Source: Comamonadaceae bacterium (lineage in GTDB: Bacteria; Pseudomonadota; Gammaproteobacteria; Burkholderiales; Burkholderiaceae_C). Taken from it: a stretch of DNA of 64,000 nt. The DNA lies in the NCBI GenBank assembly GCA_947445115.1, contig CANFCG010000002.1, positions 36,204 through 100,203 on the forward strand. Direction: 5' to 3'. This document shows, piece after piece, positions 1 to 27,381 of the stretch. Both the position numbers and the translations under genes were made by a program. The notes beneath the pieces are model-generated. The model ran no database searches and was not told where the DNA came from. It saw only the letters and a program-made list of their open reading frames with translations. The number at the start of each line of letters is the position of its first letter. Position 1 is the first letter of the stretch.

Positions 1-1176
1 TTAAAAAAATGGATGAAACCCTCCCACGTCTGGCCGACGATGCTCACGCTGGGTATGCGAAGCCACGTGCAATACATGCCCAAGGGGCGCTGCCTCATCA
101 TTGGACCTTTTAACTACCCCGTCAATTTGACGCTTGGCCCGCTGGTCTCCGCTATTGCTGCTGGCAATACCGCCATCCTCAAACCATCGGAACTCACGCC
201 GCATCTGTCGGCGGTGATTTGCAAAGTCGTGCGCGAAGTATTTACCGAAGACGAAGTCGCTATTTTTGAAGGCGAAGCCGATGTGTCGCAAGCACTACTA
301 GAGTTGCCCTTTGACCACATCTTCTTTACGGGAAGCCCCATGATTGGCAAGCTTGTGATGGGCGCTGCCGCCAGACACCTTGCCAGCGTGACGCTGGAGC
401 TTGGCGGCAAAAGCCCGACCATTATTGATGCCAGTGCGAATCTAAAACTCGCCGCTAGCAACATCATGTGGGCGAAGTTTGCCAACTCTGGACAGACCTG
501 CATTGCGCCCGATTACGTCTTCGTGCATGAAAGCGTCAAAGACGCTTGGGTAGTGCTTTGCCAAGCGCAGTTAAAGAAGGCTTACGGTGAAGATTTAGCG
601 GTGCAGCAAAAGAGTCCGCATTTGGCGCACATGGTTAATAGCCGTCATACCGCACGCGTGAAGGGCTTGCTAGACGATGCCGTTGCCAAAGGCGCCAAAG
701 CCTTGACGGGTGGGGGTGTCAGCGAGAACGACTGCTTTATCCAGCCGACGTTATTGGATCAAGTGGCGAGTAACTCACGGGTTATGGACGAGGAAATTTT
801 TGGCCCCTTGCTGCCCATCATGACCTACCGCGATATCAATGACGTGATTGCCCACGTCAATGCAGGTCCCAAGCCGCTGGCGCTGTACATCTACAGCCAA
901 GACTCTGCCAACATCGACAAGGTGCTCACGCAGACAGTGTCGGGCGGTGCTTGCGTGAACCATGCACTCATGCAGTTCCTACATGGCAACCTACCGTTTG
1001 GCGGCGTCAACAACTCTGGCATTGGTAACGCACACGGGCATTACGGCTTCAAAGCCTTCAGCCACGAGCGCGGTGTTGTGCGTACGCAATTTTCTTTTGC
1101 CGCGACTTTGTTTTCGGCGGGCGAAGTACCCAAAATGGTTCGCAAGGCTTTGAAGGCGGCGTTCAAATTTCTTTAA
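1..1176 (+). CDS. Aldehyde dehydrogenase family protein (ALDH3/coniferyl-aldehyde-DH-like), 5' end cut by window edge
   Basis: The frame is open from base 1. ALDH hallmarks ELGGKSP and GQTCIAPDY (catalytic Cys) are present. Stop TAA at 1174-1176. Confidence 0.85.
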   Translation, partial: LKKWMKPSHVWPTMLTLGMRSHVQYMPKGRCLIIGPFNYPVNLTLGPLVSAIAAGNTAILKPSELTPHLSAVICKVVREVFTEDEVAIFEGEADVSQALLELPFDHIFFTGSPMIGKLVMGAAARHLASVTLELGGKSPTIIDASANLKLAASNIMWAKFANSGQTCIAPDYVFVHESVKDAWVVLCQAQLKKAYGEDLAVQQKSPHLAHMVNSRHTARVKGLLDDAVAKGAKALTGGGVSENDCFIQPTLLDQVASNSRVMDEEIFGPLLPIMTYRDINDVIAHVNAGPKPLALYIYSQDSANIDKVLTQTVSGGACVNHALMQFLHGNLPFGGVNNSGIGNAHGHYGFKAFSHERGVVRTQFSFAATLFSAGEVPKMVRKALKAAFKFL

Positions 1177-2729
1177 GTTGCAGGTCCGCGCTTGAGTGAA
1201 ATAAGTTCTTCGCTCCATCGGTCAGCGTTTCCGCCCCATCCACTGCGACCTTCAAAGACTCGTTTGACCGAAATGCCCATCTCTGGACTGATCCAAGTTG
1301 TATCAGTTTCACGGTAGCTCCAAGCGTTGATTCGTTTGTTTTCAACCTTGTACGTTTTATATGTTCCCGCAGGTACGGTCACTGTCTCAATACCAAGCAC
1401 ACGCCCCTCGGATTCCGTCCATCGTTTTTGTCCTGCGCTGGGGCCGCTGCCCAGTGTCATGCTGCTGCGGGCCTTCCATCTTTTACCAAGCTCCAATCCA
1501 TCAACAGGCAGATTGGCGCGGGGCGGATCGTAGGCGTGATTGGTTCCACCATCAATCACGCTTTCAGCATTAATCGTTAATGTGCCGCCGCCTGCAAAAT
1601 AAACCATCCCTTCGGCCACACGAAGGACGTGCGGTTTGCGGCGCAACACCTCTCGCTTGGTGTAATCGTCCGTACGGACGTATTCAAGACTGTCGCCTGC
1701 ACGCAATTTAACGACCGACGAGCTGCGCACTTCAATGCCACTTTTGTCAATAAACGACTTCGTTTTAGCTTCGTTCAACCGCCCAATCATCGCAATGGCT
1801 GATTGCGTGATGTGTCCACTCGGGTACTTTTGTACAAAGGCGTAAAAAGGATCGGCGCTCGTGCTGTCTTTAATTGTGTCCCATTCTGCCTTTTCGATAT
1901 CGAATTGCTTTTCTTTCTCTTCGTCCGTGAGTCGAATGGTTTTTTTGATGCCTGAATTAAAAACAAAATCGTCTTCTAAACTCGTCGTCTCCCACGGAAT
2001 TTGTGCGCCATTGCTGGCTTTTCGTACCGCAAAGCGCACGCGCTTGAACACGTTTTCAATGCTGGCCGTGGGTTTTTGCAACTCCTGCAGCAGATAGCCT
2101 GTGTAGAGGCCATTTTTAGAACCTATTGCACCATCCGCCGCCACATTGCCAGGCGCAGTCGCGTAAGCAAGGAATGTTCCTGTGGGCGCGTCAAGTGGAG
2201 CGAGCCCTTTGCCTGATGACGTTTTACCATCTGCAAAAGGGTTGTCACGGCAAGCGTCCAGAACCACAATATTCATACGATTCCCCGCGTTTTTAAATGC
2301 GTTCATCACCGCTTCAATATCGACGGCTTGTTTGGGTACGTCAGCGGCCGAGTTCAGTTTTGCATCCACAGGCACCATGTAATTGCGCCAATCCAGCTGC
2401 AAACCATGTCCCGCATAAAACAGCAAGCCGATGCCTTGCTTGCCACTCAAATTTCGGCCTGTGCGCTCAATAGCAATCGCTATTTGCTCTTTGCTGGCGT
2501 CCAGTACTTCAATGACGCCAAAACCCAAGTTGCGCAGTGTCGCGGCCATGTCTTTAGCATCGTTAGACGGATTCGCCAACGCCATATTGCCCGGATAGGC
2601 CGAGTTGCCAATAATGAGCGCAATGCGCACGTCGTTTGGGGCTTGGGCTGTGGCAGAGAAGGTCAGTAGACCAGCGGCGCATAGCGCGGTGGCGAGTAGC
2701 TGGTGAGGTAGTTTTTTGAGCAGCATCAT
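1173..2729 (-). CDS. Exported caspase-fold (peptidase C14) protein, tandem paralog 1, with about 200-aa unassigned C-terminal domain
   Basis: Signal peptide ...LLTFSATAQA|PNDVR. Catalytic His in FYAGHGLQ and catalytic Cys in VVLDACRDNPF. ATG at 2729 is preferred over the track's TTG at 2741 because GAGGA lies 5-6 nt upstream. Confidence 0.85.
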   Translation of the reverse strand: MMLLKKLPHQLLATALCAAGLLTFSATAQAPNDVRIALIIGNSAYPGNMALANPSNDAKDMAATLRNLGFGVIEVLDASKEQIAIAIERTGRNLSGKQGIGLLFYAGHGLQLDWRNYMVPVDAKLNSAADVPKQAVDIEAVMNAFKNAGNRMNIVVLDACRDNPFADGKTSSGKGLAPLDAPTGTFLAYATAPGNVAADGAIGSKNGLYTGYLLQELQKPTASIENVFKRVRFAVRKASNGAQIPWETTSLEDDFVFNSGIKKTIRLTDEEKEKQFDIEKAEWDTIKDSTSADPFYAFVQKYPSGHITQSAIAMIGRLNEAKTKSFIDKSGIEVRSSSVVKLRAGDSLEYVRTDDYTKREVLRRKPHVLRVAEGMVYFAGGGTLTINAESVIDGGTNHAYDPPRANLPVDGLELGKRWKARSSMTLGSGPSAGQKRWTESEGRVLGIETVTVPAGTYKTYKVENKRINAWSYRETDTTWISPEMGISVKRVFEGRSGWGGNADRWSEELISLKRGPAT

Positions 2730-2756
2730 TTTTATCCTCAATCGTTTTTTTGCAAC

Positions 2757-4310
2757 CTAAATCCGCGGCCCACGCTTATAGGTCACGAGCTCTTCGTACC
2801 ATCGGTCTGGGTTACTGTTTCCTACGCTACGGCCTTCATATTCAGCCTTCACACGTGTACCCGCTTCAAAATCTGTCCAAATGGTGGATTTTGTCCGAAA
2901 CCCCCAAACATTGATGTCGTTGTGCTCGATTTTGTAGGTTTTAAATGTTCCTGCGGGCACGATAATAGTTTCGTAAGCAAGAACTCTCCCATTTCTTTCG
3001 GCCCACCCTTTTTGTCCCGCTTTTGGTCCTGCACCAGGAATAGTGTTCACGCGGGCCTCCCACTTTTTCCCGACAGATATACCCTCAGCAGGCAAGGCTG
3101 GTAGTGGTGGATCGAAAGTAGAGCCATCACCACCTTTGATAAATTCCCCCGCTGTTGTGAATAGTACGCCGTTCGAAAAAGTCACAATGCCATCTTTGAT
3201 GCTTAAAGTCTCACTTCTGCGTCTAGAGACTGGGTTTTTTGTGTATCCGTCATATCGAATGAATTCACCAACATCGCCCACTCTGAACACTTCGGCATAG
3301 CCATTACGAATAATTTGTCCTGATTTGTCAGCTACTGCAACCGTTTTGGCTTTGTTAAATCTGTCAATAGCCGACATGGCCGATTGCGTTAGCAGTCCAT
3401 TGGGATACTTTTGCACAAAGGCAAAAAACGGATCAGCTGACTTGCTGTCTTTAATTTTGTCCCACTCAGCTTTTTCAATATCAAACTGCTTCTCTTTTTC
3501 GTTTTCAGTCAGCTTGACCACCTTTTTAATGCCTGAGTTGAAGACGAAATCGTCTTCTAAGCTGGTCGTCTCCCACGGGATTTGTGCCCCATCGCTGGCT
3601 TTTCGGACTTGGAAGCGCACCCGCTTAAACACATTTTCAATACTGGCCGATGGCTTTTGTAGCTCTTGGAGCAAGAATCCTGTGTACAGCCCATTTTTCG
3701 ATCCAACTGCGCCGTCTGCCGCCACATTGCCAGGGGCCGTTGCGTAAGCGAGGAACGTACCCGTAGGCGCATCGAGCGGCGCAAGCCCTTTCCCTGTGGA
3801 CGTTTTGCCATCGGCAAACGGGTTGTCGCGGCAAGCGTCCAGCACGACAATGTTCATACGGTTGCCAGCAGATTTAAAAGCACTCATCACCGCTTCAATA
3901 TCCACTGCTTGCTTGGGCACATCGGCTGCCGAGTTCAATTTAGCATCCACGGGCACCATGTAATTGCGCCAATCGAGCTGCAAGCCATGCCCAGCATAGA
4001 ACAGCATGCCAATGCCTTGTTTGCCGCTTAAATCTTTACCTGTGCGTTCGATCGCTTCCATCATCTTGGCACGATCAGAGTCAATCACTTCAATCACACC
4101 AAAGCCCATGTTGCGCAGTGTTGCCGCCATGTCTTTGGCGTCGTTAGATGGATTCGCCAGCGCCATATTGCCAGGGTAGGCCGAGTTACCAATGATGAGC
4201 GCGATACGCACATCATTTGGCGCTTGAGCGTTGGCGCTGAAGGTGAGTAGGCCAGCGGCGCACAAGGCGCTGGCGAGAAGTTGACGGGGTAGTGCTCGGA
4301 TAAGTCGCAT
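2757..4310 (-). CDS. Exported caspase-fold (peptidase C14) protein, tandem paralog 2
   Basis: The N-terminal roughly 290 aa are nearly identical to paralogs 1 and 3 (AQAPNDVRIALIIGNSAYPG..., YAGHG, DACRDNPF). The C-terminal third is diverged. The start overlaps the paralog-3 stop (TAATG at 4308-4312). Confidence 0.88.
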   Translation of the reverse strand: MRLIRALPRQLLASALCAAGLLTFSANAQAPNDVRIALIIGNSAYPGNMALANPSNDAKDMAATLRNMGFGVIEVIDSDRAKMMEAIERTGKDLSGKQGIGMLFYAGHGLQLDWRNYMVPVDAKLNSAADVPKQAVDIEAVMSAFKSAGNRMNIVVLDACRDNPFADGKTSTGKGLAPLDAPTGTFLAYATAPGNVAADGAVGSKNGLYTGFLLQELQKPSASIENVFKRVRFQVRKASDGAQIPWETTSLEDDFVFNSGIKKVVKLTENEKEKQFDIEKAEWDKIKDSKSADPFFAFVQKYPNGLLTQSAMSAIDRFNKAKTVAVADKSGQIIRNGYAEVFRVGDVGEFIRYDGYTKNPVSRRRSETLSIKDGIVTFSNGVLFTTAGEFIKGGDGSTFDPPLPALPAEGISVGKKWEARVNTIPGAGPKAGQKGWAERNGRVLAYETIIVPAGTFKTYKIEHNDINVWGFRTKSTIWTDFEAGTRVKAEYEGRSVGNSNPDRWYEELVTYKRGPRI

Positions 4311-5998
4311 TAGGCACCTCGTGTGATGGTCAAAGCTTCTTCAGTCCAGCGATTCGTTTGACCATTTGGTCTGTGCAGTTCAATTTGCTGCTTAATCGGA
4401 AAGCCAAAATCGGACAGCATCCAATAGGTGCTTTTGACACTTTGCCCCGTACGACTGTTTGAGATGACCTGTATTTTGAATGCCTTAAAAGTACCTGCGG
4501 GCAAGGTGATGGTTTCTAGTGCGAGTACTTGTCCCTCTTCTTCAATCCAATTACCAGCGCTGGCTCTGCGCAGATTTGTATTTTGACCTTGTTGTCTTTG
4601 GATTGTGTTGGGACGTGCATCTAAGTGTGGCCGCATGGGTAACTCGCGGCGTAGCCTCAACGTATTGATGAGTAGCACCGAGGGTGCCTCCGCGTTGCTC
4701 AATCCACCCGTCACAACTCCCACGGGTGTCATGCTGCTGCGTGAGGTCCATTTTTTGCCTACGATCAAACCATCGGCGGGTCGCATAGGGCGCGGAGGAT
4801 CATAAACATTGCCTTGCCCGCGCATGATCTCGCCTCTTGTGGTAAGTATTCCGCCGCCTGCAATGCGTACGACTCCATTGTCAATCGACACAATGCGCGG
4901 GCTTTTGCTTTTTAGCTCTTGTCCCGTGTCGTCTTTGCGTAGCAGTTCGACCGAATCACCGATACGATAAACCGCTTGGTTTACATCATGCCGAATGCCA
5001 CTTTTGTCGGTATAGGCGGTTACTTTTGCGCGGTTCAAGCGGTCAATCACACCCATCGCGCCTTGCGAAAAGAGTCCAGAAGGGTATTTTTGTACAAAGG
5101 CATAAAAATCGCCGACGTTGGTGGAGTCTTTGATTTGCTCCCAATCCACGCTTTCAGTGTCAAACAAAGTGTCTTTTTCTTCTTCGGTCAGTTTGACCAC
5201 CGCCTTAATGCTAGTTTTAGCACCCGCATTAAAAACAAAATCATCCTCTAAGCTGGTTGCTTCCCACGGAATTTGTGCTCCGTTACTGGCCTGCCGCACG
5301 GCAAAACGAACCCGCTTGAATACGTCTTCAATACGTGCGTTGGGTTTTTGTAGTTCTTGCAGCAGATAGCCAGTGTAGAGGCCATTTTTTGAACCTGCTT
5401 CGCCGTCTCCAGCAACGTTTCCTGGCGCTGTGGCATAGGCTAAGAATGTGCCCGTTGGCGCATCCTGCGGCGCTAAACCTTTGCCAGATGCGGTCTTGCT
5501 ATTGGGGTCACTAGAAAAGGGGTTGTCGCGGCACGCGTCTAGCACCACGATGTTCATGCGGTTGCCTGCCGATTTAAAGGCGTTCATCACGACTTCAATA
5601 TCGACGGTGTGGGCGGGCACATCTTTTGCGGAACTCAGCTTTGCATCCACTGGCACCATGTAGTTGCGCCAATCGAGCTGCAGGCCATGTCCAGCATAAA
5701 ACAGCATGCCTACACCGCGCTTTCCTTGCAGGTTTTTTCCTGCTTTGGCAATGGCATCCGTCATACTGGCTTTGTCGGCATTGGTCACCTCAATGACGCT
5801 AAAACCCATGTTGCGCAAAGTTGCGGCCATGTCTTTAGCATCGTTCGCAGGATTCGCCAGTGCCATGTCACCAGGGTAGGCCGAGTTACCAATGATGAGC
5901 GCAACGCGCACGTCGTTTGGCGCTTGAGCTGTGGCGCTGAAGGTGAGCAAGCCAGCAGCGCAAAGCGCGATGCAGAGCAATTGGCGCGGCAATTTCAT
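4310..5998 (-). CDS. Exported caspase-fold (peptidase C14) protein, tandem paralog 3, with Arg-rich insertion in the C-terminal domain
   Basis: Same signal peptide and YAGHG/DACRDNPF dyad. AAGAGG ribosome-binding site before ATG 5998. Carries about 55 extra residues relative to paralogs 1 and 2. Confidence 0.88.
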   Translation of the reverse strand: MKLPRQLLCIALCAAGLLTFSATAQAPNDVRVALIIGNSAYPGDMALANPANDAKDMAATLRNMGFSVIEVTNADKASMTDAIAKAGKNLQGKRGVGMLFYAGHGLQLDWRNYMVPVDAKLSSAKDVPAHTVDIEVVMNAFKSAGNRMNIVVLDACRDNPFSSDPNSKTASGKGLAPQDAPTGTFLAYATAPGNVAGDGEAGSKNGLYTGYLLQELQKPNARIEDVFKRVRFAVRQASNGAQIPWEATSLEDDFVFNAGAKTSIKAVVKLTEEEKDTLFDTESVDWEQIKDSTNVGDFYAFVQKYPSGLFSQGAMGVIDRLNRAKVTAYTDKSGIRHDVNQAVYRIGDSVELLRKDDTGQELKSKSPRIVSIDNGVVRIAGGGILTTRGEIMRGQGNVYDPPRPMRPADGLIVGKKWTSRSSMTPVGVVTGGLSNAEAPSVLLINTLRLRRELPMRPHLDARPNTIQRQQGQNTNLRRASAGNWIEEEGQVLALETITLPAGTFKAFKIQVISNSRTGQSVKSTYWMLSDFGFPIKQQIELHRPNGQTNRWTEEALTITRGA

Positions 5999-6012
5999 TT
6001 CAACCTCTTGAT

Positions 6013-7692
6013 TTAGGGTGTTAGTGTGGTCGTAAAGAGTTGTTGAGGCGAACGGTGGTTAAAGCTCGTGGCTGAAGGCATCAGCTGTCCAGCCCTGTAG
6101 TCGGCCGACCAAGTCCCCCATCGCGCATTCAACGTCGTAATCGCCGGATTTCGATAATTAAAAGTGGCGACGACAATTTCTTGATTGTGCTCGGCGCCAG
6201 CTTTCACTTGCCACTCTATCGTGCCGATGCCTAATGCTCCAAATTGAATATCAGCCTGACCTTGGAGACCCACTCTAAGTGGTAATTTCCAAAGCGCGCC
6301 GTTTTTTAATGTCACAATTTGCTCCGCAAAAAGAACTGCTAATACGCGTCCATCTGAGGCGATTTTGTCGCCCGTGCTCATCAGCGTGTACGCCTCTGTC
6401 TTTTCTGCGACTGTGACTTGAAGCTCAGATTTTTTATTGAATATTCGGTCAACCATCTGTAGCGTTCCGATGCTTTGACCTTGCGCCAGATTTGTCATGT
6501 TGACCGCTGCTTTGACGATTGCATTGGCGGCTGCGTTTGATGGGGGCGTAGCCATTGCAATGAATGGCGTAGCTCTTGCCGCCGCCAATGCCAACTCTAG
6601 CGAGGCAGCTTTTTCACGCGCCTTTGCAAGCTCTAATTCTTTGGCTGAGTCTTTTGCTGAAGTCTGCCGATCTTCTTGTGCTCTTGCGGCGGCTCTGTCT
6701 TCGCGCTCTTTAGCGGCGGCCAACTCTCTAGTCACTTCACGTAGCCTCGCCTTAGCCAATCCCACAAAAGAACCATTTGGGAATTGCTCGATATACGCCT
6801 CTAGTTCAAACGGGCGATTGCTGCTTTTGATGCTGTCCCAATACGAGAGTTCCACTGCCATCGTGTTCGGGGCCGCTTGCATCACTTGAATGGGCTGCGG
6901 CGCTGGCGTGGGTGTGAGGGCTGCCATCACAACAGGAGGACTTTTTTTGAAGTAAAAGTTACCCTCGAGTGCTGTGTTTTCCCAAGGCGTTTGCTGGTTG
7001 GCGCTGTCTTTGCGCACGTTGGCACGTACACGCTTAAAGACTTCTTCAATCGGTATATCGGACATTCGCATGACAGCAGCTAAGTGCTGGGTGTAAAGCC
7101 CGTTATTGCCCGCGCCATCGGATGCCACCGAGCCCGGCGCTGTGGAGTACGCCACTAGCGAGCCACTTGGCGCGCTCATGGTGGCAAGACCTGCTGTGCT
7201 AGAGCGCGAGCCTTTGGCAAAGGGGTTATCGCGGCAAGCATCCAAGATGAGCAAGTTGATCCGGTTTTTGGCGGTTTCCATCTTCTCGAGGATGGATTGC
7301 GCATCGACCGAATCAAACGCTACTTCGTCTTCAGCGCGAATGTCCGCATCGACCGGCACGAGATAGTTTGCGCCTTTGACTTGCACGCCGTGCCCTGCAA
7401 AATAAAACAACCCTACGCCACCCGCCTGCTTGAGCCGTTCGCCAAAGTCACGCACCAAGCGCTGCATTTCGCGCCTAGTGGCGTTCTCGGCCTTGAGGAC
7501 GGTAAAGCCTGCTTCGGTCAGCGATGATTCCATCAAGCGCACATCGTTGACCGGGTTTTTGAGTGGTGACGACTTGTAATTGCCATTGCCAATCAAAAGC
7601 GCCAAGCGGCTCTCGCCTTGAACCTGTGCGTGCGACGCAAGCGCCGTGCATGCCAGGGTTGCAATTAATAAGAGTATTCGTAGGAGATGCAT
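6013..7692 (-). CDS. Exported caspase-fold (peptidase C14) protein with charged coiled-coil linker and a distinct C-terminal domain
   Basis: Signal peptide MHLLRILLLIATLACTALASHAQ. Dyad FYFAGHGVQ and LILDACRDNPFA. A/E/K/R-rich helix AAKEREDRAAARAQEDRQ...ELELAKAREKAASLELALAAA. The C-terminal roughly 180 aa are unrelated to paralogs 1-3. Confidence 0.85.
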   Translation of the reverse strand: MHLLRILLLIATLACTALASHAQVQGESRLALLIGNGNYKSSPLKNPVNDVRLMESSLTEAGFTVLKAENATRREMQRLVRDFGERLKQAGGVGLFYFAGHGVQVKGANYLVPVDADIRAEDEVAFDSVDAQSILEKMETAKNRINLLILDACRDNPFAKGSRSSTAGLATMSAPSGSLVAYSTAPGSVASDGAGNNGLYTQHLAAVMRMSDIPIEEVFKRVRANVRKDSANQQTPWENTALEGNFYFKKSPPVVMAALTPTPAPQPIQVMQAAPNTMAVELSYWDSIKSSNRPFELEAYIEQFPNGSFVGLAKARLREVTRELAAAKEREDRAAARAQEDRQTSAKDSAKELELAKAREKAASLELALAAARATPFIAMATPPSNAAANAIVKAAVNMTNLAQGQSIGTLQMVDRIFNKKSELQVTVAEKTEAYTLMSTGDKIASDGRVLAVLFAEQIVTLKNGALWKLPLRVGLQGQADIQFGALGIGTIEWQVKAGAEHNQEIVVATFNYRNPAITTLNARWGTWSADYRAGQLMPSATSFNHRSPQQLFTTTLTP

Positions 7693-7710
7693 AACGGCAT
7701 TATTTCAGGT

Positions 7711-9576: not shown

Positions 9577-11201
9577 GAATAACTCCTAAAAAATGCATGG
9601 GCAACATTGGCTTTTGTGATGCTGCCCTCTAACAGTGTGTAGCTGGATGCGATGACATCGCTGGGCATGCAGCTTTGCAAATGCACCAGCTGATCGATAG
9701 GGCCTGCAACCCCGACGCGGCTGGCAAGTTCTGACCAGCGCAGCTTCGCGGGCCAGCTGCTCGTGGCGTCGCCGCCCACGATGCGGCAGTCGGGCGCGTG
9801 TGCTTCTAACCAGTCGATTAAGTGATCGAGCCCTGTGTCTGCAAATGGTTTGTCGTGTGCGCGTTGTATGGGCATCACGCCGCAAACCTTATTGGGATTG
9901 GCTTGCACGGGTGCTGCTGGTAGGCCACACCAGTGGTTGCGTCTAAAATTATTCCAAGCCCTGAGGGCGGCTAAAAACAATAAAACAGCCCCTGCCGCTA
10001 ATTGCAAATCCAAAAAAACGGGAAGGATGTTGAGCGATAAGTAGCTGATGCCTAAAAGCGCACCGGGCAACACCACCAAAGCCGCGTCGAGAGAAGCAAT
10101 GCCAAAACGGCGTACCCACAAAGCCAAGCCGACGCATAGGCCAATCGCGATCAAAGCTTGAATCCAGCGCGGCACTTCTTGCACAAAACGTGCGTTCAGC
10201 GCGTTATCCAGCACCGTTGCTAGGCTTTCAACGCCCGCTTGAAAAGAGACCAACGGCGTGGGGTGAATGTCGTGCAAGCTGGGTGCTGTCGAGCCAATCA
10301 CCACAACCTTGCCTTTGAACGAAGGTACGTCCTGCTTGGGTTTGTCACCTTCTGCTTTAGCAAACACATCAGCAAAACTCATTCGCGGATACGCGTCAGC
10401 GCTCTTGCGCCAAGCGATGAGTGTGCCCGTGTCCATGCCCTGCTTGTCTAAGTTTTGCGGAATGTTAAGCAATTGATCGCGCGCTTGCACCGACTCACTG
10501 CTAGCTGCACCGATAGCCGCACTCATGGGTGTGGACTGGATGACCGAGCCGTCTGTGAGTGTTTCAAAGTAGCGATAGCGACGCAAAACGCCATCGCTAT
10601 CAGGATAGCCATTGTTAAAGCCTAAATTGCCTGCTGCGATATTGGGCAACACAGGGACGATGACTGCCAGCGTCGCGTTGGGGCGTCCTTCCTCTGGCGC
10701 TTTGACCCACAGAGTCGGCAAATCTTTGCGCGTCAGCGCACTGTGCTTGTCATTGGTGACAGGTAGTAACCTGATGACTGAGTAGTGGCTGTGCAAGCTT
10801 CGCTTGGCGGACTCGTTAAAGGCTGCGTCTCCGCCCGGGCTTAATCGGTCGGCATCGGCAAAAGCAATGTCCCACACAATAGCCAGCGGCTCTTCGCGCT
10901 CGATAAAGTCTTGCACGCTTGCCAGCGTATCGCGTGGCCAAGGCCAGCGGCCAAACTCTTTGCTCATACGGGCGAGCGAGGCTTCGTCAATATCTACAAC
11001 GACTAGTCTGGGGTCAGGTTTTGCCGCATGAAAACGATTACGTACCATCGTGTCGTAAGTGGTTTGCGAGAGACCACTAGAGACTTTGAGATAAGTCAAA
11101 TCGAGCACAATCCAAGCGGAAAAAATAACCACCAACCCCCACGTCACAGCCCCAATGGGTAGGGCCGCGAGTGCTTTAAGGGAGGCGAGTAAGGATTTCA
11201 T
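9573..11201 (-). CDS. CHASE2-domain membrane sensor with unassigned roughly 125-aa cytoplasmic C-terminal tail
   Basis: N-terminal TM helix. Periplasmic region has CHASE2-type motifs FGRWPWPRD, DSDGVLRRY and HDIHPTPL. Three TM helices follow (residues about 345-415). The tail has no recognisable kinase, cyclase or GGDEF motifs. The stop overlaps the next gene's start (ATGA 9573-9576). Confidence 0.75.
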   Translation of the reverse strand: MKSLLASLKALAALPIGAVTWGLVVIFSAWIVLDLTYLKVSSGLSQTTYDTMVRNRFHAAKPDPRLVVVDIDEASLARMSKEFGRWPWPRDTLASVQDFIEREEPLAIVWDIAFADADRLSPGGDAAFNESAKRSLHSHYSVIRLLPVTNDKHSALTRKDLPTLWVKAPEEGRPNATLAVIVPVLPNIAAGNLGFNNGYPDSDGVLRRYRYFETLTDGSVIQSTPMSAAIGAASSESVQARDQLLNIPQNLDKQGMDTGTLIAWRKSADAYPRMSFADVFAKAEGDKPKQDVPSFKGKVVVIGSTAPSLHDIHPTPLVSFQAGVESLATVLDNALNARFVQEVPRWIQALIAIGLCVGLALWVRRFGIASLDAALVVLPGALLGISYLSLNILPVFLDLQLAAGAVLLFLAALRAWNNFRRNHWCGLPAAPVQANPNKVCGVMPIQRAHDKPFADTGLDHLIDWLEAHAPDCRIVGGDATSSWPAKLRWSELASRVGVAGPIDQLVHLQSCMPSDVIASSYTLLEGSITKANVAHAFFRSYS

Positions 11202-11252
11202 GGCTGTAAAGATATGTATATTCGTTTATAGCCCATCGCTGCCTAGGCCGAC

Positions 11253-11268
11253 TCCTATGTTTATAGGA
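11253..11268. promoter_or_regulatory. Candidate operator TCCTAT-GTTT-ATAGGA, 51 bp upstream of the CHASE2 gene start
   Basis: Perfect inverted repeat (7-bp arms CTCCTAT/ATAGGAG at 11252-11269) in the 86-bp gap after the CHAT gene. The same motif recurs at 14405 and 15506. A TATAAA -10-like hexamer lies about 23 nt downstream on the minus strand. Confidence 0.55.
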
Positions 11269-11287
11269 GGCGAGTTAATAAAAGGAG

Positions 11288-14200
11288 TTACCGCCCCCCA
11301 TCCCCCACCAACGCATAAGGCGCCCAATAAGCCGGGTGTGCCGTAGCGGGGTTTGCCATGACTGTCAGCATCGCTTGGCGCAAGCTCTCCGCCTTGGCTT
11401 CTGTAGGTTTGCTTTGGTAATTTTTGAACGTTTCGGTGGTGAGCGTCATGGCACTCTCGCTATCCACCGCCCAGTGCGTGACGAGCAAGCTTCGGCTACC
11501 CGCATAAAAGAATCCACGTGCCAAGCCAGAGAGCGCTTCCTCCGCCTTGCCATCCGCTGCTGCTGTGTTGCAGGCACTCAGCACCACCCAATCCGCATTC
11601 AGTTTGAGTGTGAGTACGTCTTCTAAAGTCAGTAACGGCGCGAGCACGTTGGCTGCATCGTCCTTGGTGCCAGCCATAGCCAGTGCGGGCTGCGTGAGGT
11701 TGGGCAGGTCCCCCGCCATGAGCCCGTGCGTAGCGAATGCCACCACACGCTGCTTGGCAAGATTCCCGTTTTTGTTTTGCGCCAGCACGCTCTCACGCGT
11801 GGCGGCGCTACCGAGAATCAGATCTTTCGCAGCGTTTGCGCCCAGCGTTTTGGCAATCGCTAAAAGTTCATCGCGCGTTTCGGGTAGCTCTGGAATGTCA
11901 GCGTACTTCAGGGCGCTTTTCGGGTCTTCTTTTTCTAAATCAACGGCGGTTGCGGCGCGTGTCAAAACGACCTTACGCACCGAGGCTAGGGCAGGCTCAG
12001 TGTGAGGGGCATTGGATGCTAGTGCGATATTGAACAACGGATCACCCCAAGCCAACATGGGCTGCTCTGCTGCTTTGTGAGGGAGCGAGCGCATGGACAG
12101 CCACGCGGCAACGCTAGGAACGTGAGTCACTGCCGCTTGCTTAATAAGCCAAGACGCATCAGAAACCGCTCGCCCTGAGTCTGTCGAAGGGTCGAAAGGC
12201 TGCGTCTCCAAAACACCAAACGGAATCTGCCCCAATGCGCCGCCCGCCGCAATGATAAGACTAGCCTTGCCCGCCAAGCCTTGCTGGACGGGGCTTAGCA
12301 GCTTGGCATAAAGCTCTTGCGCAGCAGCGTGGTCAAATGCGGGACGGCGATTGGCTGGAAGCCCTGCCACATCTAGGCTGACGCGCAGACGCTTGACGAG
12401 GCGGCTTAACTCAGCATGGCTCACAGCCGCACGGTGGAAACTGCCAGCACCGTCTTTTGAGAGCGCCCACACGTACACCGCCTCATCGGTAGGTTGCAGC
12501 ACGACCAGTGCTTCGTCATTTTTTAGCCGCGCTTGAATCTCGGTGGTGGAGGGCGGTAGCGGGCGCACCAGCTTCTCGTAATCGGGGAATGTCGCTTTGA
12601 TCTTCACTTGTACCTCTGCACGAGCCCGTTCAAGTAAGGCGATGCGCTCACGCATTTGCGCAGCAACGCTTGGCAGCGGGGAAGCCGCACCGCCTGTTTC
12701 GCCGCTCAAATAATTGCGCAGACCTTTGATCTCGTTACGCGCATCTTGGTCTTGGCGCACCAAGCCAGACAAGGCCTCGTTGGATGCAGCCGCCCTCACA
12801 GCCGCGTCGCCCAAAGCCTCTTGCACAAGGCCACCACGCAGCCAATCGGCAATGCCGAGAGCGGCTACTGCGTCGGCGCTATTGACTTGTGATGCAGCTT
12901 CTAGATAAGTCGAAAAAATCATTTCGCGCAACTCTTTGCGGATGCCGACGTTCTCCAAATAGTCCACGTTATCGGGCGACATGATGTTGCGAACAGCAGC
13001 TTGCAAAAGCGGGTAGGCCTGTGCGCGTGAGTCGGGCGTGCCCACGCGCCACAGCGCCACGCCTTGAAGCCCTGATGCTTGAGCCGTAAAAAAGTGCTGT
13101 CTTATTTGCCCGTTGCTCGCTAGACCTTGCCTGTATTGCTTTTCAAGAGATTCGGCCTCAGAAGCCAATAGCGGCAAGGCCTCCAGAGCTTTGTTGTTGT
13201 AGAGATAGACTACAGCGCGGTCGAGCGCGTAGCGAACGCGAGCTTTTAAGTCTTCGTCTATGCCCGCGCTGGCGTCTAGTTTTTGAAATTCGGCTAGCGC
13301 GTCTAGGTAGCGGTGTTGACCGATGAGGGCTTTAGCTAGATCACGGCGGATGGATGTGATGGCTAGATTAGTCTCTTCATAATTTAATTTTTGAAATCTT
13401 GTTAGCGCATCTGCCCTAAGTTGCTCAGCCTGAAAAAACTCTCTTTGCGCGTATCTGTAGTCAGCAACGCCATTGATCGCTGATGCGTGATTGCTGGGGG
13501 ACATGGTGACTTCTTCCAGCAGCCTTAAATAATCACGCATCGCTGCCTCTGCTTGGGAGTATTTTTTCGTGTCTAGTAATATATTTTGCTTGTATTGCAA
13601 AGAACGGAGTAGTTGCTGATAGGCGAAGTCTTTTTGCGCTTCACCACGAACGGTCTTCAGAAATTTGGTTGCCTGCCTAGCAAAATTGACGGCTTGTTCT
13701 GCATCTGTAACCGCTGCTGTCGCTTGTCCTTGCCTCATGTTGAGTTGGGCTTTAGTCGTCCATGAATAAGCTTGTGCGCGAGCTTTATCGCGCAGCGAAT
13801 CTTCATCCATTCTTTGTGTTGGTTGTGCAAATGCGATACTTTTTTCTGCATAAGCCAGTGCATCTGAATCTTTACCCAATAAATAAAAGGCATTGGCAAC
13901 ACTGGCTGCATAGAACGCTCTTTGCTCATCAGTGGTGGATGTGCGAAATGCCTCTTGATACCAAAAATTGGCAGTGACTATGTCCCCGCGAAATTTATAC
14001 ATAGCGCCCAAGTCATTTTTATACCGCGGCACATTGGGGAATAGTTCAGTGCCTTCTTTGTTGGCGTTAAATACGGCTATCGCATCACTCAATTTGAAAG
14101 CGGCTTGCAGTTTATTTTCTATTTGCTGCCGCAATTGATTTGTTTGAGCTCGCCTATTCGTAGGCTCTGCCAAGATTGCTCGGAGCTTTATCTCTTCTTC

Positions 14201-14347
14201 GGGAGCTAATTTTTTAAAGTTTTGCGCCAACACTGTCACTTCGCTTTGCGCTTTTGCCTCGTTGGCGCAGACGAGCCAAACGGACAGCGCAATAGCAACG
14301 GCGCAGACGAAGGCGGATAGGGCGTGGCTGATTTGCTCACGTAACAT
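11288..14347 (-). CDS. Exported (or membrane-anchored) TPR-repeat CHAT-domain protease-like protein
   Basis: Start is placed at ATG 14347 (MLREQISHALSAFVCAVAIALSVWLVCANEAKA|Q), which gives a signal peptide or signal anchor. A long helical TPR-like N-terminal region follows. The C-terminal CHAT domain has VAFATHGL (His) and DWVVLSACNTA (Cys). Confidence 0.8.
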   Translation of the reverse strand: MLREQISHALSAFVCAVAIALSVWLVCANEAKAQSEVTVLAQNFKKLAPEEEIKLRAILAEPTNRRAQTNQLRQQIENKLQAAFKLSDAIAVFNANKEGTELFPNVPRYKNDLGAMYKFRGDIVTANFWYQEAFRTSTTDEQRAFYAASVANAFYLLGKDSDALAYAEKSIAFAQPTQRMDEDSLRDKARAQAYSWTTKAQLNMRQGQATAAVTDAEQAVNFARQATKFLKTVRGEAQKDFAYQQLLRSLQYKQNILLDTKKYSQAEAAMRDYLRLLEEVTMSPSNHASAINGVADYRYAQREFFQAEQLRADALTRFQKLNYEETNLAITSIRRDLAKALIGQHRYLDALAEFQKLDASAGIDEDLKARVRYALDRAVVYLYNNKALEALPLLASEAESLEKQYRQGLASNGQIRQHFFTAQASGLQGVALWRVGTPDSRAQAYPLLQAAVRNIMSPDNVDYLENVGIRKELREMIFSTYLEAASQVNSADAVAALGIADWLRGGLVQEALGDAAVRAAASNEALSGLVRQDQDARNEIKGLRNYLSGETGGAASPLPSVAAQMRERIALLERARAEVQVKIKATFPDYEKLVRPLPPSTTEIQARLKNDEALVVLQPTDEAVYVWALSKDGAGSFHRAAVSHAELSRLVKRLRVSLDVAGLPANRRPAFDHAAAQELYAKLLSPVQQGLAGKASLIIAAGGALGQIPFGVLETQPFDPSTDSGRAVSDASWLIKQAAVTHVPSVAAWLSMRSLPHKAAEQPMLAWGDPLFNIALASNAPHTEPALASVRKVVLTRAATAVDLEKEDPKSALKYADIPELPETRDELLAIAKTLGANAAKDLILGSAATRESVLAQNKNGNLAKQRVVAFATHGLMAGDLPNLTQPALAMAGTKDDAANVLAPLLTLEDVLTLKLNADWVVLSACNTAAADGKAEEALSGLARGFFYAGSRSLLVTHWAVDSESAMTLTTETFKNYQSKPTEAKAESLRQAMLTVMANPATAHPAYWAPYALVGDGGR

Positions 14348-14404
14348 GGTGATTCTCTGTATGAATGGAATCAACATTGTTTCGCACAGCAGGTTTTTTG
14401 ACCA

Positions 14405-14420
14405 TCCTATATTCATAGGA
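14405..14420. promoter_or_regulatory. Candidate operator TCCTAT-ATTC-ATAGGA, 57 bp upstream of the TPR-CHAT gene start
   Basis: Perfect inverted repeat in the 86-bp gap between the OmpA-like stop (14434) and CHAT ATG (14347). 18 nt (CATCCTATATTCATAGGA) are identical to the copy at 15504-15521. Confidence 0.55.
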
Positions 14421-14433
14421 GGCGCACTGCCAA

Positions 14434-14976
14434 TCACTGCAAATTCACAATCTTCACGCGGCGGTTTTCTGCTGCTAGTGGATCGGTGGTGTTGGCGGGA
14501 TCGCTTGATCCTTTGCCCGCAGACGAGAGGCGTGTGCCGTCTACGCCTTTGCTGACTAAGAATTCGCGCACGCTATCAGCTCTGTGCTGCGACAGGCGCT
14601 GGTTGTAGTCTGCTTTGCCTTTAGCATCAGTGTGACCCTCAATGACAAATTTGGCCTCTAACAAGTCTTTGGATTGCATGGCTGCAGCCAAGTTTGCTAA
14701 GGATTCTTTGCTTTCAATTTTGACGCTGGCGGAGTTGAAATCGAATTGGATTTGCAGCGAGAGTGAGGCTTTTTCTGTAGCAATGACTTCTTGCGCTGTT
14801 GCCACATCGACGGTGAGATTGCGCACGCCGCTGAGGCTACGGGTGCGCGCCGCTGCGGGATAAGCGGTGCTAGCTGGCTTGGCTTTGAGCTGCTCAATCA
14901 TTTGTTCAGGCGTGGGCGTTTGCGCAAAAGCCGTTTGGCCTAGCAGAGCTAAGAAAAGTGTAGCTAGGGTTTTCAT
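14434..14976 (-). CDS. OmpA-family (peptidoglycan-binding OmpA_C-like) periplasmic protein
   Basis: Signal peptide MKTLATLFLALLGQTAFAQ. The C-terminal OmpA-like motif is IEGHTDAKGKADYNQRLSQHRADSVREFLVSKGV...RRV. ATG 14976 is preferred over the track's GTG 14985. Confidence 0.8.
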   Translation of the reverse strand: MKTLATLFLALLGQTAFAQTPTPEQMIEQLKAKPASTAYPAAARTRSLSGVRNLTVDVATAQEVIATEKASLSLQIQFDFNSASVKIESKESLANLAAAMQSKDLLEAKFVIEGHTDAKGKADYNQRLSQHRADSVREFLVSKGVDGTRLSSAGKGSSDPANTTDPLAAENRRVKIVNLQ

Positions 14977-14981
14977 AAGGG

Positions 14982-15461
14982 TCACTTCTTTCGTTCTGTA
15001 AAGATGATTTTGTCAATCAAACGCTCGCCTTTGTCGTCTATTTTTAACAGAAGCTCCGCATCGTATTGATTGGCTGATTTGTGCAGATCATGTGCATTAA
15101 TGGCTTTAGTGGCGCGGGTTGTATTCCAAATGCCACTGATTAATGAGAGCAATAGCAATGGATTTTTTGCTGCGACCGTACTCTTTGGTGGCGTAACCGT
15201 GACCTTGCCACCACCCGACTCAACCGATTGCAGCCATGTTTGGATGCGCGGCGGAATGGAGGTTGCCGTTGTGGCATTCATCACCGCCACATCAACGACG
15301 GGCAAACTGGCGGCAAGCGATGCATTGAGCGAGTGGTCAAAACCATCGAGATCAATAAACTCTAAGTGGGGCTTCGCCTCTATCGTCGAGGCTGACGGGC
15401 TGGCGCAGGCAGTAAGGAATGCGGCAAGGCTAATAGCCAATAAAGTGAATGCGTGTTTCAT
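14982..15461 (-). CDS. Hypothetical lipoprotein (first gene of the lipoprotein/OmpA-like pair)
   Basis: Lipobox AFLTAC after an N-terminal hydrophobic stretch. I recognise no family. It is tightly linked to the OmpA-like gene (stop 14982-14984, next ATG 14976). Confidence 0.6.
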   Translation of the reverse strand: MKHAFTLLAISLAAFLTACASPSASTIEAKPHLEFIDLDGFDHSLNASLAASLPVVDVAVMNATTATSIPPRIQTWLQSVESGGGKVTVTPPKSTVAAKNPLLLLSLISGIWNTTRATKAINAHDLHKSANQYDAELLLKIDDKGERLIDKIIFTERKK

Positions 15462-15505
15462 GAGTTGATTTTCACACGATTTGAATCTCTATGCTGGATG
15501 GGGCA

Positions 15506-15521
15506 TCCTATATTCATAGGA
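15506..15521. promoter_or_regulatory. Candidate operator TCCTAT-ATTC-ATAGGA in the divergent promoter region between the lipoprotein gene and the response regulator
   Basis: Perfect inverted repeat (7-bp arms ATCCTAT/ATAGGAT at 15505-15522). It lies 44 bp from the lipoprotein ATG (15461) and 83 bp from the regulator ATG (15605). Confidence 0.55.
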
Positions 15522-15560
15522 TGCGAACCACTTTGGATGCGGACACAATAGAGGACATGG

Positions 15561-15580
15561 ATTCTTGCCTTCGCGGGAAT
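15561..15580. repeat. REP-like hairpin element, degenerate copy (ATTCTTGC-CTTC-GCGGGAAT, followed by GAC)
   Basis: Matches the ATTCCCGC-N4-GCGGGAAT family seen five more times in the window. The two arm mismatches would be G-U pairs in RNA. Confidence 0.6.
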
Positions 15581-15604
15581 GACGAACTTTTTTGGAAATG
15601 ATTC

Positions 15605-16246
15605 ATGCACATTGCCTTGGTTGAAGACAATGCACAGACAAGGGCTCGGATTGCGCAGCTCTTGCATGCGTGCCTACCAATGGCGCAGGTGACGCAGTTC
15701 GATCGTCTGGCTGCGGCCAAGCAGCATGCTTTGCAAGCCAAATCGGATTACTGGTTAATTGATTTAGGTCTACCCGATGGCAGTGGTATCGAGTTGATTC
15801 GGGCGGTGCGAGCTGAGGATGCTACGGCGCACATCTTGGTGATTTCGGTATTTGGCGATGTGGATAACGTGGTTGGCAGCATTCAAGCGGGTGCGAATGG
15901 CTATTTGCTCAAAGACGCGGTGGATACGGACTTATCAGGTGCAATGGCCGCGATGGAGCTGGGGGGCACGCCGCTCTCGCCCATGATTGCGAGTCGCTTG
16001 CTGGAGACCATGATGCCCGCCAAGCCAAGTGCAGTACGGCCTACACCAGTGCCTATTTTGACGCCCAAAGAGGCGGAGCTACTTAATTTACTCTCTCGTG
16101 GTTATACCTACGCCGAGTCGGCCGAGCTGATGGCGGTGGCCATTTCGACCGTGCAAACGCATGTGCGCGGCATTTATGCCAAGCTGGCCGTAGGTTCTAA
16201 AGCCGAGGCGGTGTTTGAAGCCAAGGTACTAGGGCTCTTGGCATGA
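15605..16246 (+). CDS. NarL/LuxR-family response regulator (receiver + LuxR-type HTH)
   Basis: Receiver domain with the phospho-acceptor context WLIDLGLPDGSG. C-terminal HTH LTPKEAELLNLLSRGYTYAESAELMAVAISTVQTHVRGIYAKL. Confidence 0.88.
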   Translation: MHIALVEDNAQTRARIAQLLHACLPMAQVTQFDRLAAAKQHALQAKSDYWLIDLGLPDGSGIELIRAVRAEDATAHILVISVFGDVDNVVGSIQAGANGYLLKDAVDTDLSGAMAAMELGGTPLSPMIASRLLETMMPAKPSAVRPTPVPILTPKEAELLNLLSRGYTYAESAELMAVAISTVQTHVRGIYAKLAVGSKAEAVFEAKVLGLLA

Positions 16247-17370
16247 TGCTGCTACCGCATCACCTGTCAGCGCTTTTGGTCACAGGGGCATCGCTTTTGA
16301 TGTGCCTGTTGCTTTTGGGCCTGTGGCGTGTGAGTAGCCAGCCACGCGAGCGGTTTTTGCTGCTGGCTAGCCTAGCGCAAGCGGTTTTTACGTTGCATCA
16401 AGTGCCTTTGTTTTTTGATAACGATGTCTTTGCCAGCTGGATAGGGCGAGCTACATTTTCAAGCCTGTTTGGCCTCTACCTGGGGTTGACAGCCTTGGTG
16501 GTCAACCTTTTACTGACGCCGCCTTCACGGGTATTGCTGCGCTTGACAAAGCTCTATCTGTGGCTAGTGGTGCCGTTTAGTTTTTATATTTTTGGTGTGT
16601 TTGATTTCACAGGCTATTTGAGTGGCGTCTATGTGCAACATCGCTTGACGGCCAATAATTTGATCGCCTTATTCATTAACGTGGGTTTGGTGTTTGTCGT
16701 GGTGCGCAGGTTTTATACGATGCAGCATCAACTGCTGCAAAGCCGCATGGATGCTGGGTTTGCACTGGAGCGCGCTCGGTTGACTGAACGCCAGCGCATC
16801 ATGTCGGACATTCACGATACGGTGGGCTCGCAACTGGTGGGGGTGCTGGCCCTCGTTCGCGGTGGCGCCGATGCCCAGGTGATTGAGCAGCACACAGCGG
16901 ATGCGCTGCAAGACTTGCGGATGGCGGTAGATGCTATTCAACCGATCAATGGAAACCTGGCCGCCGTGCTGGCTACGCTACGCCACCGCTTGCAGCCGCG
17001 CTTGCAAGCGGCAGGGCTTGGGCTGGTGTGGCGAGTGGATGATTTGCCGCGCTTGGACCATTTGACGCCCGTTATGGTGCAGCATATTCAGCGTATCGTA
17101 ATGGAGGCATTTAGCAACGTCATTCAACACGCCAATGCGACTTCGATCACATTAACGGCATTGAATCTGCACGAGTCTATGAGCATTGAAGTCAGCATCG
17201 CCGATGATGGCGTGGGTTTTGATAGCCATCTGTCGATAGCAGGGCGTGGCCTTGCCAATTTAAGTGCGAGAGCGCAGGCTATTGGCGCGGCGCTATTCAT
17301 CGCGCACCATGCGCCCCGAGGGACGTTGCTGCGCCTTACTCTACCGTCACACTTTTCGCCAAATTCCTAG
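16243..17370 (+). CDS. Sensor histidine kinase, HisKA_3 (NarX/DesK-like) type, with multi-pass membrane N-terminus and no large periplasmic loop
   Basis: About 5-6 hydrophobic helices fill the first 165 aa. The H-box is [17 protein letters not shown]. An ATPase region follows (ADDGVGF...GRGLANL). The start overlaps the regulator stop (ATGA 16243-16246). The last 35 nt overlap the glmS 3' end. Confidence 0.85.
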
Positions 17371-27371: not shown

Positions 27372-27381
27372 GCGAAGAAAC

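Follow-up and report, generated by a model that had tools for sequence, protein, structure and literature searches.

The CHASE2 sensor domain was defined in 2003, and neither a direct CHASE2 ligand nor a solved CHASE2 structure was found in the literature. Catalogs of exported bacterial caspase homologs date back to about 2012, and no such homolog with an assigned function was found in the literature. These two long-standing puzzles, the exported caspase homologs and the input of CHASE2, are joined in a conserved operon that we describe here from a 64-kb stretch of DNA of a Comamonadaceae bacterium (contig CANFCG010000002.1, positions 36,204–100,203), which is referred to in its whole length as the window. 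At positions 1173–17370 the window encodes five proteases of the Peptidase_C14 family that are predicted to be exported (C14a to C14e, 1173–9576), a stand-alone CHASE2 membrane protein, a predicted exported TPR-CHAT protease, an OmpA-like protein, a lipoprotein, and a two-component system. The locus is a genuine and conserved envelope module of freshwater Comamonadaceae, of which the window carries an unusually expanded copy.

Pieces of such a module are known from several described systems. DdvA from Myxococcus xanthus is a structurally characterized periplasmic TPR-CHAT protein, which was proposed to be a signal-induced site-1 protease (PMC11506125). The BiofilmReg operon of Burkholderia encodes a response regulator, a LysM-FecR protein, a CHASE2 histidine kinase, and a DUF4136 lipoprotein, and disruption of the response regulator abolishes biofilm (PMC5192318). 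The CHASE2 cyclases of S. meliloti respond to a protein, plant uL2, which they sense via the outer-membrane protein NsrA (PMC13001267). Fusions of CHASE2 with caspases were noted earlier (PMC3501461, PMC8195603), OmpA was recorded in 14 metacaspase operons (PMC3501461), and genomic island 15 of Psychroflexus torquis carries a cluster of CHASE2 and secreted metacaspases (PMC3914696). None of the prior papers that noted such pieces (PMC3501461, PMC8195603, PMC3914696) defines or tests the module described here. In agreement with a preliminary description of the window, made from its sequence, no described system of the same composition was found in our literature searches, and the source databases give the module proteins generic names only. 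The catalytic domains are ordinary members of the C14 and CHAT families; what is new is a CHASE2 sensor whose exported partner is a caspase-family protease.

With the CHASE2 protein as query, more than 850 relatives were found, and among the 120 matches listed all are full-length and 52–100% identical. The gene neighborhoods on metagenome contigs, together with a scan in which each GTDB species was represented by one genome, gave 33 distinct loci, and for their annotation we used the proteins of the window itself and hidden Markov models built from these. All 33 belong to Comamonadaceae or to unclassified Burkholderiales or beta-proteobacterial metagenome-assembled genomes (MAGs), and the genera represented include Rhodoferax, Polaromonas, Limnohabitans, Variovorax, and Curvibacter. 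The same core triad is found in the same order and orientation, namely the OmpA-like gene, the stand-alone CHASE2 gene, and an SH3b-metacaspase-DUF4384 gene (C14e in the window), all co-directional and close or overlapping. A C14e-type gene lies directly downstream of CHASE2 in every one of the 30 loci in which the contig continues, with a spacing that ranges from an overlap of 4 nucleotides (nt) to about 50 nt, and the OmpA-like gene is upstream of CHASE2 in 28 of 31 loci. The flanking genes vary between genomes, so the block has been kept together as a unit. Other genes of the window are less widespread: from none to four extra C14 paralogs are present per locus, with a single C14 gene in 13 of the 33, TPR-CHAT occurs in five loci (plus a diverged second version in locus L039), and the two-component system is missing from 31. 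The invariant core is the triad, and the extra paracaspase-like paralogs, TPR-CHAT, the lipoprotein, and the two-component system are accessories. Of these accessories, this genome has four paracaspase-like proteases, the TPR-CHAT protein, the lipoprotein, and a two-component system of the LuxR type. Among fully syntenic relatives, locus L006 is the closest, with proteins that are 58–78% identical to those of the window.

Among the described systems, DdvA shares with the window a periplasmic TPR-CHAT with a conserved His-Cys dyad, a proposed protease in trans-envelope signaling; the earlier statement that characterized caspase and CHAT systems are cytoplasmic is inaccurate with respect to this protein (PMC11506125). 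However, DdvA is a single-pass protein with a cytoplasmic zinc anti-sigma domain, has an extracytoplasmic-function (ECF) sigma factor as its partner, and controls genes of CRISPR and of the cyclic-oligonucleotide-based antiphage signaling system (CBASS) (PMC11506125), whereas the CHAT protein of the window is soluble, is predicted to be exported with a cleavable signal peptide, and is accessory to a CHASE2-caspase core. No anti-sigma domain was found in this CHAT protein, and there is no sigma factor among the products of the locus. The BiofilmReg operon likewise groups a CHASE2 sensor with a response regulator, a small lipoprotein, and an exported partner that binds peptidoglycan, but that partner is LysM-FecR and not a protease, CHASE2 is fused to the kinase, and the regulator is of the OmpR/CreB type (PMC5192318). 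Neither FecR nor DUF4136 gave a Pfam match in any product of the window, the lipoprotein included. The S. meliloti receptors CyaD1, CyaD2, and CyaK with NsrA are similar in that a protein-type signal is relayed to CHASE2 receptors by an envelope partner, and they differ in their cyclase output, in the outer-membrane beta-barrel nature of the partner, and in a pathway that has no known protease (PMC13001267).

Orthocaspase-CHASE2 and EACC2-caspase-CHASE2 fusions also tie a C14 protease to a CHASE2 sensor, although there a single polypeptide carries both, with CHASE2 as the extracellular sensor of a caspase that is predicted to lie in the cytoplasm (PMC3501461, PMC8195603, PMC7475262). In the window, by contrast, the proteases are separate proteins, and their predicted export would bring them to the face of the membrane on which the CHASE2 domain also lies. 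The Psychroflexus island, compared by its description only, encodes several metacaspases, some of which have signal peptides, as well as a transcriptional regulator and a CHASE2 protein, but it belongs to Bacteroidota and is a 35-kb mobile island flanked by transposases, with WD40 metacaspases and a LytTR-type regulator (PMC3914696). More distant are MALT1 and the fungal, protozoan, and plant metacaspases, the His, Cys, and S1 Asp motifs of which align with C14a to C14e; these enzymes are eukaryotic and cytosolic and have other accessory domains and partners. The type III-E craspase (Cas7-11 with the TPR-CHAT protein Csx29) and the gasdermin-activating proteases are also regulated effectors of caspase-fold or TPR-CHAT type, yet they are cytoplasmic and need either Cas7-11 with its CRISPR RNA or a gasdermin substrate gene. 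The lack of CRISPR, NTPase, and gasdermin partners that had been remarked on at the locus holds, as no such domain was detected by Pfam or NCBIfam in any of the 11 products, and the PADLOC defense library gave only generic caspase and MotB-like domain matches, with no Cas or gasdermin. By its features the locus is neither a craspase nor a gasdermin system, and it is likewise neither an EACC1 system nor a DdvA-type anti-sigma factor.

The central protein of the triad is the stand-alone CHASE2 membrane protein (9573–11201, minus strand), which matches the Pfam CHASE2 family (PF05226) with an E-value of 4e-47 and 161 bits. Its topology consists of a transmembrane helix, the periplasmic CHASE2 domain, three further transmembrane helices, and a cytoplasmic tail of about 110 residues, with the helices placed at residues 16–41, 345–366, 368–392, and 400–424 in a predicted model. 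The C-terminal 113 residues gave no Pfam match at E-values up to 1 and hold no recognized output domain (kinase, cyclase, GGDEF/EAL, or Ser/Thr kinase). Among 1.84 billion cluster representatives this tail domain was found in 40 clusters, always at the C terminus of proteins of the same family. A Foldseek search of the PDB with the model, which has a mean predicted local distance difference test (pLDDT) score of 66, gave no match with an E-value below 0.1. In another genome of the family (locus L004), a second, classical CHASE2 receptor is present near the module, in that a SulP/STAS transporter with a cyclic-nucleotide-binding domain, followed by a CHASE2 protein of guanylate-cyclase type, lies about 4–6 kb downstream (L004:11786–16151).

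The protease partner of CHASE2 in the core, C14e (7711–9576, minus strand), has Pfam matches to SH3_3, Peptidase_C14, and DUF4384, with the caspase domain placed between SH3 and DUF4384. Its HYSGHG and DACHSG motifs align with yeast Yca1, which is also its best match among solved structures (E-value 3e-7). Besides the catalytic cysteine, six cysteines are conserved in C14e, as would be expected of a disulfide-bonded periplasmic protein. The C14e homologs are 57–100% identical among the matches listed. C14e also carries conserved Arg segments, GVRSL between SH3 and the protease domain (residues about 105–112) and VRTRG and KTRNL after the catalytic Cys (about 258–296).

The third member of the triad is an exported OmpA-like peptidoglycan-binding protein (14434–14985, minus strand), which matches Pfam OmpA (PF00691) with an E-value of 2e-22 and 79.9 bits against a cut-off of 27.2, and which falls under the cut-off of every named NCBIfam equivalog, for example Pal, YiaD, and PdsO. 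In its N-terminal part (residues about 25–60) the motifs PSxxQMIEQLK and PRTRSL..RNL are conserved, the latter being invariant in the alignment. Speculatively, PRTRSL..RNL and the VRSL, VRTRG, and KTRNL segments of C14e could be Arg-specific cleavage sites.

The four further C14 genes, all on the minus strand, are accessories. C14a (1173–2741; Pfam C14 E-value 3e-38) is exported and paracaspase-like, its C-terminal domain is divergent and resembles DUF3108 (DUF3108_like, E-value 2e-5), and its signal peptide ends in ATAQA as read in the translation. C14b (2757–4310; E-value 3e-37) is a paralog of C14a, and C14c (4310–5998; E-value 3e-39) is a paralog of both, with an insertion in the C-terminal domain that is evident from the alignment. 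C14d (6013–7692; E-value 6e-43), also exported and paracaspase-like, has an Ala/Glu/Lys-rich linker and a different C-terminal domain, and homologs of its type adjoin CHASE2 in several loci. For all five C14 genes the Peptidase_C14 E-values range from 5e-20 to 6e-43, and all pass the PF00656 gathering score (72–148 bits against a cut-off of 21.4). With the model of EACC1-associated caspases, NF047832, the five proteins score 32–66 bits, under the curated cut-off of 140. C14a to C14d further share a motif at residues about 285–315 (window 1173–7692), W(D/E)xIKxS....F.AF(V/I)(Q/E)(K/Q)(Y/F)PxG, which sits between the protease and the divergent C-terminal domain and has no family match.

The catalytic dyads are intact, as had been proposed, since the His and Cys motifs align with those of solved enzymes. 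The YAGHG and LDACR motifs of C14a to C14d align with the catalytic dyad of MALT1, which we take to be H415 and C464, and MALT1 is the best solved-structure match of these four proteins (E-value 7e-13). None of the 59 C14 domains in the loci of the family has lost either residue. The Asp that precedes the catalytic Cys aligns with MALT1 and Yca1 as well, as does an ND motif. These residues form the S1 pocket in metacaspases and paracaspases, and their conservation fits a predicted Arg/Lys specificity of the C14 proteases. The Sec-type export signals that had been read at the N termini were found again by inspection of the translations, which show a basic N terminus, a hydrophobic core, and an AxA-type site. 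In related loci, 52 of 56 C14 homologs have a hydrophobic N-terminal signal ahead of the protease domain; the remaining four fall under the threshold and look like near misses or artefacts of the start chosen for the open reading frame (ORF).

In 50-column alignment windows, C14a and C14b are 76–96% identical in the protease domain and 35–69% in the C-terminal part; for C14a, C14b, and C14c together the values are 66–96% in the protease domain and mostly 35–56% over the C-terminal 190 or so residues, a region with a partial DUF3108-like match. Synonymous divergence (dS) among the three is saturated (above 1.5), and the ratio of nonsynonymous to synonymous divergence (omega) in the protease domain is 0.04–0.08, with C14b at 0.04 and likewise saturated. 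Recent gene conversion as the cause of the near-identical protease domains is ruled out by these values, which indicate that C14a to C14c are old paralogs under purifying selection and not recent duplicates or conversion tracts.

The exported TPR-CHAT protease, an accessory (11288–14347, minus strand, with an ORF that extends to 14437), matches Pfam CHAT (PF12770) with an E-value of 2e-45 and 156 bits against a cut-off of 24. Its start is most likely the ATG at 14347, giving 1019 residues, and not the GTG at 14437, because a palindrome at 14406–14419, described below, falls inside the 5' extension of the ORF. The public gene call, also of 1019 residues, agrees with this start, and with the start so revised the apparent overlap of the OmpA-like and CHAT genes is probably not real. 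The signal peptide ends in AKA, and the TPR region follows directly. The dyad H874/C926 is invariant in eight CHAT homologs. In Pfam the TPR part is weak (TPR_12, E-value 0.003), and by profile the N-terminal 650 residues match TPR proteins (kinesin-light-chain TPRs, E-value 2e-8). Sequence and profile searches of the PDB with the CHAT protein returned TPR proteins only, with no DdvA, craspase, or separase. At two loci, two tandem TPR-CHAT genes that are 34–39% identical to the window protein lie downstream of C14e (L013:14029–19448 and L032:14076–20089), which indicates that the CHAT accessory has itself been duplicated in some lineages. At another, a 612-residue gene with C14 and weak CHAT matches (L002:20657–21725) is located three unrelated genes downstream of the module, on the opposite strand.

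The orphan lipoprotein (14982–15461, minus strand; 159 residues) is an accessory found in 10 of the 33 loci. Its lipobox reads LTAC, with Cys19 invariant in 20 homologs; no family was found for it in Pfam, NCBIfam, or PADLOC, and its structure model (pLDDT 70) has no significant PDB match. On the plus strand are a NarL/LuxR-type response regulator with REC and GerE domains by Pfam (15605–16246) and a multi-pass membrane histidine kinase without a sizeable periplasmic domain (16243–17370; Pfam HisKA_3 and HATPase_c), the latter with weak NCBIfam matches to UhpB, LiaS, and NarQ types. Profiles and the lipobox bear out the envelope companions listed in the preliminary description, namely the OmpA-like protein, the lipoprotein, CHASE2, and the HisKA_3 kinase. 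The two-component system had there been called dedicated to the locus, which is not supported, as it is present only in the window and in L006, where the sole ortholog of the response regulator (73% identical) is found.

A shared palindrome had been noted before each of three transcription units, and we find each copy 45–58 nt upstream of a minus-strand start codon. Three exact copies of CCTATnnnnATAGG begin at 11254, 14406, and 15507, with none elsewhere in the 64 kb, and shuffled sequence gave 0.56 matches to it with one mismatch allowed. The first copy (CCTATGTTTATAGG, 11254–11267) is 52 nt upstream of the CHASE2 start, and the second (CCTATATTCATAGG, 14406–14419) is 58 nt upstream of the revised CHAT start. 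The third (again CCTATATTCATAGG, 15507–15520) stands between the divergent lipoprotein and response-regulator genes, 45 nt upstream of the former and 84 nt upstream of the latter. The same palindrome is kept at the same three positions in L006, and a single copy precedes the lipoprotein-OmpA-CHASE2-C14 operon of locus L001; no copy was found in 82 other loci. The NarL/LuxR-type regulator would be the obvious candidate for the protein that binds it.

It is apparent from more distant loci that CHASE2 genes recurrently adjoin a gene for an exported partner. In a Burkholderiaceae MAG (L036, 6504–13045), a C14 protease is followed by an SH3 and DUF4384 protein without a protease domain and then by a CHASE2-HisKA-HATPase-REC hybrid kinase, with a LuxR-type regulator adjoining; from this domain arrangement, SH3 and DUF4384 alone may be a CHASE2-linked adaptor. 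Three lake MAGs have the arrangement of the window with another class of protease, in that an exported SH3 and Peptidase_M48 gene runs into the start of a CHASE2 gene that is stand-alone and codes for 543 residues (L041:147–2695, L042:547–3374, and L043:8670–11488). A FecR-domain gene is immediately upstream of CHASE2 in L053 and L062, and two acidobacterial loci have the order FecR-like, OmpA-like, CHASE2 (L047:8798–11818 and L074:969–4102), which extends the adjacency of OmpA-like and CHASE2 genes past Comamonadaceae. The partners of CHASE2 are often peptidoglycan-binding and sometimes proteases, and the class of the protease is swappable. The published CHASE2 systems of Burkholderia (PMC5192318) and S. 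meliloti (PMC13001267), with their own envelope partners, are in line with this pattern. Homology between DUF4384 and FecR was considered and rejected (hhalign probability 0.6%).

Our best reading of the locus, which we hold tentatively, is a peptidoglycan-tethered, protease-dependent envelope signaling module. C14e, with its paralogs where these are present, would act in the periplasm and cut after Arg or Lys, and the SH3b domain and the OmpA-like protein would hold the proteases at the cell wall. In the direction proposed, cleavage of a protein substrate would create, process, or release the input that CHASE2 perceives, the candidate substrates being an exogenous or envelope protein, the OmpA-like tether, or the proteases' own linkers. 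CHASE2 would then pass its state across the membrane via its cytoplasmic domain. In this sub-lineage the response regulator would bind the CCTATnnnnATAGG palindromes and control all three units, which would provide feedback control, and the paralogs would widen the range of substrates or targets through their different C-terminal domains. The invariant pairing of CHASE2 with a metacaspase gives a concrete hypothesis, that of protease-dependent CHASE2 activation, and the pairings with M48, FecR, and OmpA-like genes elsewhere point in the same direction.

Several points weigh against this reading. The cytoplasmic output domain of the CHASE2 protein is an orphan, and the two-component system, with 31 of the 33 loci lacking it, cannot be the general output. 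In the AlphaFold2 model of the CHASE2 protein, built from an alignment of 14 sequences, the periplasmic domain is poorly predicted. The candidate cleavage motifs (RTRSL, VRSL, and KTRNL) are short and a matter of speculation, and the signal peptides were called by inspection, a hydrophobicity heuristic, and conservation and not by a trained predictor. Finally, up to five proteases seem excessive for pure signaling and would also fit a degradative or effector role. As to the periplasmic proteolytic module put forward in the preliminary description, the export signals, the intact dyads, and the coupling of CHASE2 with the OmpA-like protein speak for it, whereas the order in which sensors feed TPR-CHAT and TPR-CHAT feeds C14 effectors finds no support; since only five of the 33 related loci have CHAT, the core works in its absence.

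An effector role is the essence of one alternative, an envelope defense or death battery, in which phage, a predator, or damage would lead CHASE2, TPR-CHAT, or both to activate the exported caspases, with destruction of envelope proteins, abortive infection, altruistic lysis, or receptor stripping as the outcome. Caspase-family proteases are effectors in bacterial conflict systems, where CHASE2 is fused to caspases (PMC8195603, PMC3501461), and the only characterized periplasmic TPR-CHAT, DdvA, controls an antiphage island (PMC11506125). The combination of conserved protease domains with divergent C-terminal domains in the paralogs resembles effector diversification; the accessory content is variable, and the module lies at different chromosomal places in different genomes. 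Nevertheless, nothing in the context favors the cell-death or defense role that had been raised for this locus: its neighbors in the window are housekeeping genes, with no defense gene, tRNA, or mobile-element mark among them, the PADLOC matches are generic, and the family is absent from 2.9 million viral contigs, in which only three distant CHASE2 relatives (28–37% identity) were found. The core is strongly conserved across several genera and the paralogs are under strong purifying selection, whereas typical defense genes turn over faster, and most loci have no CHAT. We consider this alternative unlikely.

The other role that would accommodate so many proteases is a degradative or maturation one, in which the exported C14 enzymes would break down proteins of the periplasm or the medium as nutrients, or would process envelope proteins or attach them in the manner of a sortase, and CHASE2 and the OmpA-like protein would mainly be scaffolds or regulate expression in response to substrate. 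In favor of this alternative, nutritional or sorting functions are known for other exported clan CD enzymes, among them gingipains, clostripain, and the PorU sortase. The hosts are freshwater planktonic heterotrophs, up to five proteases that are intact by sequence carry different putative binding domains (DUF3108-like, SH3b, and DUF4384), and an analogous SH3-M48 protease adjoins CHASE2 in other lineages. However, the invariant part consists of one protease with CHASE2 and OmpA, no gene for a transporter, a secretion system, or a substrate with a sorting signal lies in the block, and an invariant link to a membrane-receptor gene, often with overlapping stop and start codons, would be unusual for bulk degradative enzymes. 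This possibility is also doubtful in our judgment, and the count of loci with a single C14 gene argues against it.

A broader and bolder proposal, which we regard as rather improbable, is that CHASE2 receptors in general are gated by a co-encoded exported partner and not by a free small ligand. Here this would take the form of an extracytoplasmic caspase cascade, in which a wall-tethered initiator (TPR-CHAT, C14e, or both) and C14 executioners would cleave envelope proteins and signal via CHASE2. If true, receptor-linked caspase cascades would have a counterpart in the bacterial periplasm. A merely fortuitous neighborhood of functionally unrelated genes in this genome can be dismissed for the core, where chance adjacency is effectively refuted: CHAT, the two-component system, the lipoprotein, and the extra C14 copies do come and go between genomes, but the CHASE2-C14e-OmpA-like coupling keeps its order and orientation across 33 loci of several genera with differing flanks, and the shared palindrome stands before all three units and nowhere else in the window.

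If the proteases do signal or kill from the periplasm, caspase-fold regulated proteolysis in bacteria would reach beyond the cytoplasm. Cultured carriers of the module include Limnohabitans sp. Jir72, Curvibacter microcysteis RS43, Variovorax terrae, and a Polaromonas isolate.

With regard to the layout of the locus, all 11 genes listed in the preliminary description were re-found as ORFs at their positions, between a truncated aldehyde dehydrogenase gene (stop at 1176) and glmS (17336–19165), and their domain assignments were upheld in Pfam and NCBIfam profile searches. The intergenic gaps are at most 143 nt, which leaves no space for further genes. The tight spacing described for the CHASE2 and C14 genes is correct, with an ATGA at 9573–9576, a 1-nt overlap at 4310, and other gaps of 14–18 nt, and the start of the histidine kinase gene overlaps the stop of the response-regulator gene by 4 nt. 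Generic promoter and terminator scans gave counts no higher than those of shuffled sequence, and no conspicuous terminator-like sequence was seen at either end of the locus. In the window there is no Rfam match and no tRNA gene was found. Both ends of the locus are convergent: on the left, the stops of C14a and of the aldehyde dehydrogenase gene share 4 nt (1173–1176), and on the right, the 3' end of the histidine kinase gene overlaps that of glmS by 35 nt (17336–17370). Elsewhere in the window (24986–30750), a second histidine kinase gene (25641–27371) adjoins an ORF of 223 residues (24986–25657) and a YhdP/AsmA-family gene (27382–30750).

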